A stretch of 61,654 nt of DNA from Hyphococcus sp. (GTDB lineage Bacteria > Pseudomonadota > Alphaproteobacteria > Caulobacterales > Parvularculaceae), in the NCBI GenBank assembly GCA_021776315.1, contig JAJFGD010000067.1:1-61654 (forward strand), read 5' to 3'. The position numbers were made by a program, and so were the translations under genes. Below are positions 34,419 through 35,585 of the stretch, piece after piece. Within the stretch, counting starts at the first letter, position 1; the number at the start of each line of letters is the position of its first letter. Below the pieces are notes generated by a model. That model was given only the letters and a program-made list of their open reading frames with translations, searched no databases and was not told the DNA's origin.

Positions 34419-35585
34419 TTATTCCGCAGATGCGCCGGCATTTTCAGACCGGGCTAATTTTATATTTTCAGAATCAAACATTGGTTCCATTTCCGCAAGC
34501 GCGCGTTGGCTATCGACCCATGCCTCGAATGCTGGACGGGAAACCACTTCAACCGCGATCGGCATATATGAGTGGCGCACGCCGCAAATTTCAGAGCATT
34601 GGCCATAATAAATACCTTCGCGATCGGCACTGAACCAAGTTTCGTTTATACGGCCAGGTACAGCATCAACCTTGACGGCAAATGCTGGTAGCGCCCAGGC
34701 GTGAATGACGTCGCTCGCGGTCGTTGTGATGCGAATGGTTTCACCGACAGGCACGACGACACGATTGTTGACTTCTAATAGGTAAGTCTCCGGTGTGGAT
34801 TCTTCTTCGGTGGCCATGTCGGAGAGAAATTCGAAATCGCCAAAATCTGGGTAGGAATAGTTCCAGCCCCATTGGCGACCGACAGCCTTAATGGTCATTG
34901 TTGGTGCCATCACGATTTCTTTGTCACAGGCATCAATAAAACGTTTGGCATTCGGGCAACCAGAAACATTCTGGGAAGAACGACCACCACGAATAATGAC
35001 ACGCTCGCCTGGGGCCGGCGGCGTTTCAAACGAAACAACCACTTCAGCATCGCCGAAACCGTCAACGCGATAATCATCGCGATAACGTAGGACTTGTTGG
35101 CCAGAACCATTATCTAGGGCCACCTGAAGATGGCTGCGCCGCTTAACCATGCGACTTTCCGCAAAATCATTCGGAAAAACAAAATCCACCGTTTGGCCAT
35201 CGCCAGCCACCACCACCTGCTTTCCGTCTGGGGTCACATCCTCTTTATAGAGAAGCTCAAAAGACGGCAGGGCAATGATTAGCAAGATGATGATCGGAAC
35301 ACCGGTCCAAATAATCTCAACCAATGTATTATGGCTAAATTTTCGAGGTTCCGGGTTACTCTTGGCGTTGTACCGGACGATAACCCAGATCAACAGCGCC
35401 AAGACAAATAAGCTAATCACCGTAATGATCGGCAATAATATCCAATTGTGGAAAAAGTGTACTTCTTCTGCGAGTGCAGAATTTGCTGGCTGCATGGCAA
35501 TGCCGCCGGGGGTCATCTGGGCCGTCGCGGCTGTCGCCAGCCACACACCTAGTCCACTTAACGTCGCGGTCAGTTTTTTCATCAT
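34419..35585 (-). CDS. ctaC: Cytochrome c oxidase subunit II with a ~108-aa inserted domain
   Basis: Signal peptide, two TMs ([10 protein letters not shown]), DVIHAW and CuA motif [19 protein letters not shown] precedes ATG 35585. Confidence 0.95.

Follow-up and report, generated by a model that had tools for sequence, protein, structure and literature searches.

The closest described relatives of the protein considered here are the subunits II of the A1-type aa3 cytochrome c oxidases of Paracoccus denitrificans and Rhodobacter sphaeroides (1ar1_B, 7au3_B, 2gsm_B), with which it has in common two transmembrane helices, the CuA ligands, the tryptophan entry site and the cluster partners ctaD, ctaB, ctaG and ctaE, and to which its predicted model compares with a TMt of 0.75–0.80. 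It differs from them in about 107 additional linker residues, which are predicted to form a separate domain. Enlarged or split COX2 is described from ciliates, brown algae, chlorophytes, alveolates and Campsomeris wasps in PMC5374615, and large in-frame additions are tolerated within the subunit in those systems as they are in this one. According to that paper the site of enlargement or splitting lies after the Trp105 heme-patch region, whereas the present insert sits some 12 residues ahead of the corresponding tryptophan and has a recognisable phage fold. Extra periplasmic domains are also carried on subunit II by the cytochrome c fusion of caa3 oxidases (2yev_B) and by OmpA fusions; these are C-terminal and of known function, the domain fused in caa3 oxidases having a haem c role, whereas the insert is internal, cofactor-free and of putative virion origin.

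On the phage side the nearest described domains are the heads of podovirus tail fibres and spikes (Carin-1 8ck1_B, Dpo31 D1, T7 gp17, PF03906 and the HTVC010P/phiV10 type), which have the same seven-strand sandwich as that predicted for the insert (Z 11.2) and share with it the pattern G-x-G-x-T-x-x-F-x-F ... L-x-V ... DY-x-V-x-G-x-G ... V-x-F/L-x-x-P-x-x-G-x-x-V-x-I. In the Carin-1 tailspike Dpo31, as set out in PMC13317679, the N-terminal D1 domain is a beta-sandwich of residues 8–87 that attaches the spike to the tail. The insert differs from these heads in being internal rather than N-terminal, in lacking the helical segment that follows them, in sitting in a host membrane enzyme, in having a six-residue longer loop with an invariant asparagine and arginine, and in falling under the PF03906 cut-off. 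The insertion domain of the GTA/R4C distal-tail protein (DUF2460, PF09343; 8gtc_G) is of the same fold family and is likewise inserted (Z 7.2), but the insert matches it far more weakly (probability 6–12) and has no part of the Dit core. In PMC10276861 the R4C Dit insertion domain is said to resemble the T7 fibre N-terminus and is proposed, without proof, to bind cell-wall sugars; because of that resemblance the insert, the fibre heads and the Dit insertion can be placed in one superfamily.

The window is the whole 61,654-nt contig JAJFGD010000067.1 (GCA_021776315.1, Hyphococcus sp.) of a member of the Parvularculaceae, which are mostly aquatic bacteria; all coordinates are positions within it, and the whole oxidase cluster lies on the minus strand. 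The gene for cytochrome c oxidase subunit II with the insert, ctaC/coxB, occupies 34419..35585 and encodes 388 aa from an ATG at 35585. Its N-terminal segment and two transmembrane helices (COX2_TM, residues 26–111, 35253..35510; Pfam E 1.2e-22) and its CuA cupredoxin domain (COX2, residues 230–348, 34542..34898; Pfam E 4e-48) both exceed the Pfam cut-off, and the predicted full-length model shows the membrane part as two long helices. Of 70 loci, 69 keep the six CuA ligands H295, C330, E332, C334, H338 and M341 and the entry residue Trp239, and the one exception is truncated where its contig stops; E90 is conserved in all 70. The gene is followed by ctaD for subunit I (32738..34402; Pfam COX1), whose A1-type GHPEVY motif is invariant in the alignment, and then, at 28862..32570, by the rest of the cluster, which comprises a paralogous pair of small hydrophobic membrane ORFs (32211–32570 and 31686–32069) and the genes ctaB (UbiA family, 30691–31608), ctaG (29946–30515) and ctaE/COX3 (28862–29800). 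Judged from its sequence, CtaC is the subunit II of an A1-type aa3 cytochrome c oxidase, otherwise normal in its two helices, cupredoxin domain, ligands and partner genes.

The small ORFs between ctaD and ctaB are without a Pfam match and are candidates for a family-specific oxidase subunit or assembly factor. Their homologues occur in 103 of 152 Parvularculaceae genomes, mostly directly after ctaD, and since genomes without the insert have a small ORF too, it does not track the insert. Divergent from ctaC lies the gene of a secreted-looking TPR protein (35823–36371, plus strand), which is followed by tldD. A motif scan of the genome found cytochrome c1 (C182:451–1383), an anchored CycM-like cytochrome (C169:747–1490) and two c2-like ones as partner cytochromes, together with two cbb3-type clusters, all of which we take to be such from sequence resemblance; the two separate cbb3-like gene sets lie on contig C152 at 12222–14019 and 25434–27198.

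Between TM2 and the CuA domain the insert contributes 108 codons (324 nt, D120–A227, 34905–35228, minus strand). No significant Pfam domain is found in CtaC between COX2_TM and COX2, and Paracoccus subunit II (1ar1_B) aligns to the protein as two blocks, 25–121 and 223–378, with a gap of about 105 residues. Both results bear out the first-pass annotation, which had described some 108 extra residues at this place, intact CuA ligands and a comparison with Paracoccus CtaC as the way to check them. Relative to the short linker P-EAD-MT of four loci of the family (L045, L046, L047, L132) the net gain is about 107 residues. Two parts can be distinguished, namely a beta-sandwich of residues ~121–202 (34980..35225, minus strand), delimited by the model, Foldseek, VIA, hhalign and conservation, and a variable hairpin of residues 203–227 (34905..34979, minus strand), recognised from model strands, tip classes and covariation, which leads back into the CuA domain and has at its tip a predicted disulfide loop, Cys210–Cys220 (34926–34958, minus strand), which holds a short helix in the model. 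That the insert might be an assembly chimera had been raised at the outset. The whole 1.4 kb stretch lies in a single contig without a joint in four of four runs, three of which are distinct from the possible source run and come from two other studies; three differences fall inside the insert, all at third codon positions as computed from coordinates. These joint-free runs, together with homologous CtaC proteins that carry the insert, rule out a chimera.

The AlphaFold2 model of the insert core has a mean pLDDT of 91.4 and seven strands. When it was compared with the PDB by Foldseek, the best ten rows were all podovirus tail entries (T7 gp17, Carin-1, LME-1, Kp7 and Kp9), with TMq values of 0.62–0.77 and T7 gp17 and Carin-1 in the lead; none of the PDB rows reached E<=0.001, the best being 1.1e-3. 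Against BFVD there were 23 viral models at E<=0.001, with TMq up to 0.80, and the named ones were mostly tail fibres or spikes. VIA ranked Carin-1 8ck1_B first (Z 11.2, rmsd 2.2, 80 of 87 residues aligned, 28% identity, chain range 6–90) and LME-1 second (Z 10.5), and gave the R4C baseplate chain 8gtc_G a Z of 7.2 over its range 83–174, a Z of 7–8 being a level that a common arrangement can produce.

Profile comparisons agree with the structural ones. An insert profile built from 54 sequences (residues 119–205) matches 14 fibre heads in hhalign at a probability of 94.5 (E 7.5e-8), and at 94.7 when only 12 fibre-head rows from viral contigs are used, with a range of 94.5–95.7 across comparisons; the controls gave 0.5 for a reversed profile and 0.07 for cupredoxin, and the highest value reached by any of 30 column shuffles was 4.4. 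The score is somewhat favoured, because the comparison alignment was seeded from a match of the insert profile. The same profile also matches the Dpo31 sequence (E 0.012). Outside the family, matches other than CtaC were found in one of 242 genomes of the order and four of 400 of the class, with limited candidates scored per genome, and all five are N-termini of fibre-like phage ORFs; both of the two that were checked fall in PHROG tail families, one aligns to the insert with 36% identity over 74 aa, and the relatives of one, 163 records from phages of the HTVC010P and phiV10 kinds and others related to them, are annotated as tail fibre or tailspike. A weak profile match (E 2.4e-4) marks an internal copy of the domain in an ORF of 827 aa within a prophage tail region (L072:2899–5379, genome G009); this ORF has no Pfam or PHROG match.

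Single-sequence searches were far less informative. The insert of this CtaC alone gave only DGF-1_N at E 0.02 in Pfam and no tblastn match among 50,697 phage records; PHROGs returned an unknown family (E 0.002) and, less significantly, a tail fibre (E 0.47). A homologue stored in the ESM Atlas gave no usable hit, and NCBIfam returned nothing consistent on the 54 members. PF03906 (Phage_T7_tail) was not reached at its curated cut-off, two of the 54 members matching weakly (best E 9.6e-4) and the insert of this genome not at all. The features of a whole fibre are likewise absent, the insert being neither N-terminal nor placed before trimerising helices nor in a phage gene context; it lies inside a chromosomal oxidase gene, with the hairpin and then the CuA domain after it. 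On profile and model comparisons together, the first ~82 residues of the insert are very probably homologous to the N-terminal beta-sandwich of podovirus tail fibres. The direction of transfer would be from phage to host, because many phages have the domain, whereas among CtaC proteins it is limited to one clade.

The first-pass annotation had compared the insert both with T7-like tail fibres and with DUF2460/GTA-type proteins; the likeness to podovirus fibre heads held, that to DUF2460/GTA proved far weaker, and both lie below the Pfam cut-off. Set against the DUF2460 middle domains of the family, the insert reaches an hhalign probability of 12 in one comparison and 5.8 in another, as opposed to 94.5 for the fibre heads, and its profile scores them at <=3.7 bits. 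The PF09343 cut-off is not reached by any of the 54 insert members, four of which match weakly (best E 0.015), and in the reverse direction the DUF2460 HMM touches one CtaC insert at E 8.8e-4. The CtaC insert of one genome scored 19.6 bits against DUF2460 (cut-off 30.4), over profile positions 94–169 only, and the full Dit core of ~205 residues is absent from the insert protein. By these sequence and model comparisons the podovirus heads are the nearest of the fold relatives and the DUF2460 insertion is more distant. DUF2460 itself is present in 48 of 61 Parvularculaceae genomes, with no match in the genome studied here. Six genomes of genus g26 (G158, G152, G153, G155, G165 and G172) have it some 20 kb away from ctaC, which is not so in the other genera checked, and in G158 (C1:640455–660328, L136) a GTA-like cluster of terminase, portal, major head and DUF2460 starts about 11 kb after ctaC.

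The survey of distribution that the first-pass annotation had called for places the insert in most of the family, its profile matching 137 of 152 Parvularculaceae genomes, 99 of the 105 near-complete ones and 10 of 13 genera. The six near-complete genomes without a match comprise three with the ancestral short linker (G136, G137 and G138), two in which ctaC is cut at a contig end (G005 and G107, the latter stopping just inside the insert) and one with no ctaC match (G164); G139, which is 58% complete, also carries the short linker and brings the family genomes of this kind to four. In word-indexed searches all 84 matches to the insert and all 102 to its profile carry COX2 domains, and their source names are Hyphococcus, Marinicaulis, Parvularculaceae and Parvularcula bermudensis. 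One of these matches, on a 1.2-kb contig, is labelled Oricola. No CtaC with the insert was found outside the Parvularculaceae in the 242 genomes of the order and 400 of the class, with limited candidates scored per genome, and the genome studied here has no second copy of the domain. A profile search of 1.84 billion proteins returned 14 matches, seven of them CtaC or CtaC fragments, one the protein P0098 and six giant repeat proteins, which were rejected as homologues because each single repeat scores under 7 bits. P0098, which matches PF03906 weakly (E 8.4e-5), has 273 aa and two interleaved fibre-head-like domains.

In a tree of CtaC without the insert joined to part of CtaD (57 rows, left from 65 after removal of eight near-duplicates) the 41 insert-bearing rows form one clade with an SH-aLRT of 90, and the insert-less G138 and G137 branch before it; FastTree gives the same branching order with weak support. 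The simplest reading of this tree is a single gain early in the Parvularculaceae, an SH-aLRT of 90 not being decisive. The median dN/dS is 0.069 for the insert (using the dS of the core) and 0.065 for the core, as estimated from the 22 of 435 pairs with unsaturated dS, which are non-independent. The insert is under purifying selection at the level of the catalytic core, and neither loss nor decay was seen in any complete ctaC across 10 genera. Since it is fixed and under such selection family-wide, the suggestion of the first-pass annotation that a virion-type module had been domesticated fits. A second, broken ctaC with TGA stops occurs at G075:C44:12128–13135, in a genome 79% complete with 4% contamination. 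A different family of the order has unrelated extras of roughly 15–35 residues in the TM2-to-CuA linker (L125 in G037, L127 in G050).

Within the sandwich the invariant or near-invariant residues are N139, F141, R145, H152, G201 and R202. The loop that is longer by six residues than in the phage consensus holds N139 and R145, both invariant, H152 is near-invariant, and G201–R202 end the sandwich where phage fibres have a helical stalk; N139, R145 and R202 are invariant polar residues outside the phage consensus. Most of the conserved residues are core hydrophobics and turn glycines common to the phage fold, and the insert has no haem motif or conserved set of metal ligands. Outward-looking positions of the sandwich have a mean column identity of 0.62, compared with 0.81 in the CuA domain, and the net charge ranges from −13 to +7 among members, so that a single conserved charged partner, such as cytochrome c, is unlikely.

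The hairpin is modelled with strands 204–206 and 222–224 and a helix at 212–216, and the pairs 205–223 and 207–221 covary across it; covariation linking the insert to the rest of the protein is weak, with phylogenetic signal mixed into it (Meff 77). Its tip falls into three classes, counted over 192 insert-bearing rows, some of them redundant: a paired-cysteine helix with KR-YF (79 rows, with a cysteine spacing of nine in 78 and no single-cysteine rows), a long cysteine-free loop, commonly xLGLFG (59 rows), and a short turn (54 rows). The disulfide loop that had been thought likely is thus predicted in this protein but is not general, and among labelled loci the paired-cysteine tip is found in genera g1 and g20 only, as a feature of a sub-lineage. 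Because the tip can be reduced to a short turn, contact of the tip with the membrane is not essential. The full-length CtaC model (pTM 0.86, pLDDT 92) superposes on Paracoccus subunit II with a TMt of 0.79, and since its helices and CuA domain are placed as in Paracoccus, the inserted domain is probably fixed and looped out; the insert is predicted to loop out and to leave the placement of the CuA domain relative to the helices unmoved. Beside the insert, four CtaC proteins of the family (L033 in G092, L034 in G073, P0082 and P0089) have a C-terminal OmpA-family peptidoglycan-binding domain, identified by Pfam in L033 (E 1e-22) and P0089 (E 2e-23), by a precomputed assignment in P0082 and by sequence resemblance in L034. 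Such a domain would tether the oxidase to the cell wall.

The first-pass annotation had put forward effects on cytochrome c docking, supercomplex assembly or envelope tethering as possible roles. The reading we favour, to which we give about an even chance, is that the domain was captured once from a podovirus fibre head and is now a rigid, cofactor-free periplasmic module, which would brace subunit II and provide a surface for docking. An accessory module is suggested because the nearest relatives attach proteins, because selection is at the level of the core, and because new invariant polar residues have appeared. In outline, a single capture would have brought the virion-attachment head of a podovirus tail fibre into the linker of subunit II. 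The coiled-coil that follows the domain in phages would have been lost, with the hairpin packing on the CuA domain in its place and, where a hydrophobic or amphipathic tip is present, perhaps touching the membrane through it. The new polar cluster of N139, R145, H152 and R202 may fix the domain in position. The module would then act like the small accessory subunits of other oxidases, bracing subunit II and presenting a protein-contact surface within the respiratory chain, and electron entry via Trp239 and CuA would be unchanged. A more ambitious version, which we regard as a tentative possibility with the chances clearly against it, is that the head still docks onto proteins as it does in phages and holds the aa3 oxidase to one defined partner, organising the respiratory supercomplex of the family; the candidates for that partner would be bc1, the membrane-anchored cytochrome c, the small membrane protein encoded after ctaD, or a second oxidase.

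On a rival reading the phage domain entered a tolerant linker, was fixed by chance in the ancestor of the family and has been kept, without a positive role, since its folding has to be maintained and a clean deletion is hard to achieve. The prevalence of core hydrophobics and turn glycines among the conserved residues would be expected of such an entrenched passenger, the four short-linker genomes and all other families examined do without the insert, and the extras in L125 and L127 show that the linker tolerates unrelated additions; the equality of dN/dS with the catalytic core, the lack of any loss or decay in complete ctaC genes of 10 genera and the invariant N139, R145 and R202 outside the phage consensus nevertheless make a passenger rather unlikely. 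We consider it quite unlikely that the domain instead acts as a tether, placing the oxidase in the envelope through binding to peptidoglycan, to a periplasmic glycan or to a protein of the envelope. The OmpA domains of some CtaC proteins in the family indicate that tethering of this oxidase has been selected, and the R4C Dit insertion is proposed in PMC10276861 as a cell-wall sugar binder; the OmpA domain has, however, been added on top of the insert and has not replaced it, the nearest relatives attach fibres to the tail, which is a protein contact, and the conserved aromatics align with core positions of the phage fold, leaving no evident sugar-stacking patch.

The origin of the domain can be questioned separately from its role as an appendage, the donor being then the DUF2460 distal-tail protein of a resident GTA, or a cellular protein, rather than a podovirus fibre. 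DUF2460 is common in the family and close to ctaC in the six g26 genomes, its HMM touches one insert, and a likeness of the R4C Dit insertion to the T7 fibre N-terminus is noted in PMC10276861, but the hhalign probability of 6–12 against 94.5, the Z of 7.2 against 11.2 and the ceiling of 3.7 bits for DUF2460 middle domains leave such a donor very unlikely. That the domain serves as a decoy trapping phage tail proteins in the periplasm has the phage origin of the fold as the sole point in its favour and seems exceedingly improbable, given that the phage partner of the fibre head, the tail base, remains outside the cell in phage architecture and that the conservation resembles that of a housekeeping gene and not an arms-race gene.

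We found no description of this CtaC insert in searches of the open literature. The known cases of domesticated phage structural genes in bacteria, such as those of GTAs, tailocins and injection systems, stay in phage-like machines; in the Parvularculaceae one lone virion domain seems to have been built into a core respiratory subunit and kept in most of the family under core-level selection. It offers a datable and testable case of the gain of accessory mass by respiratory complexes in an alphaproteobacterial lineage, for which the insert-less relatives are natural controls and for which cultured species exist, named homologues coming from Hyphococcus and Parvularcula. The insert is also a clean molecular marker for most Parvularculaceae, and the linker that holds it is a permissive fusion site in subunit II. 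If the domain does clamp the oxidase to a defined partner, a virion-assembly interface would have been re-used in bioenergetics by a whole bacterial family.
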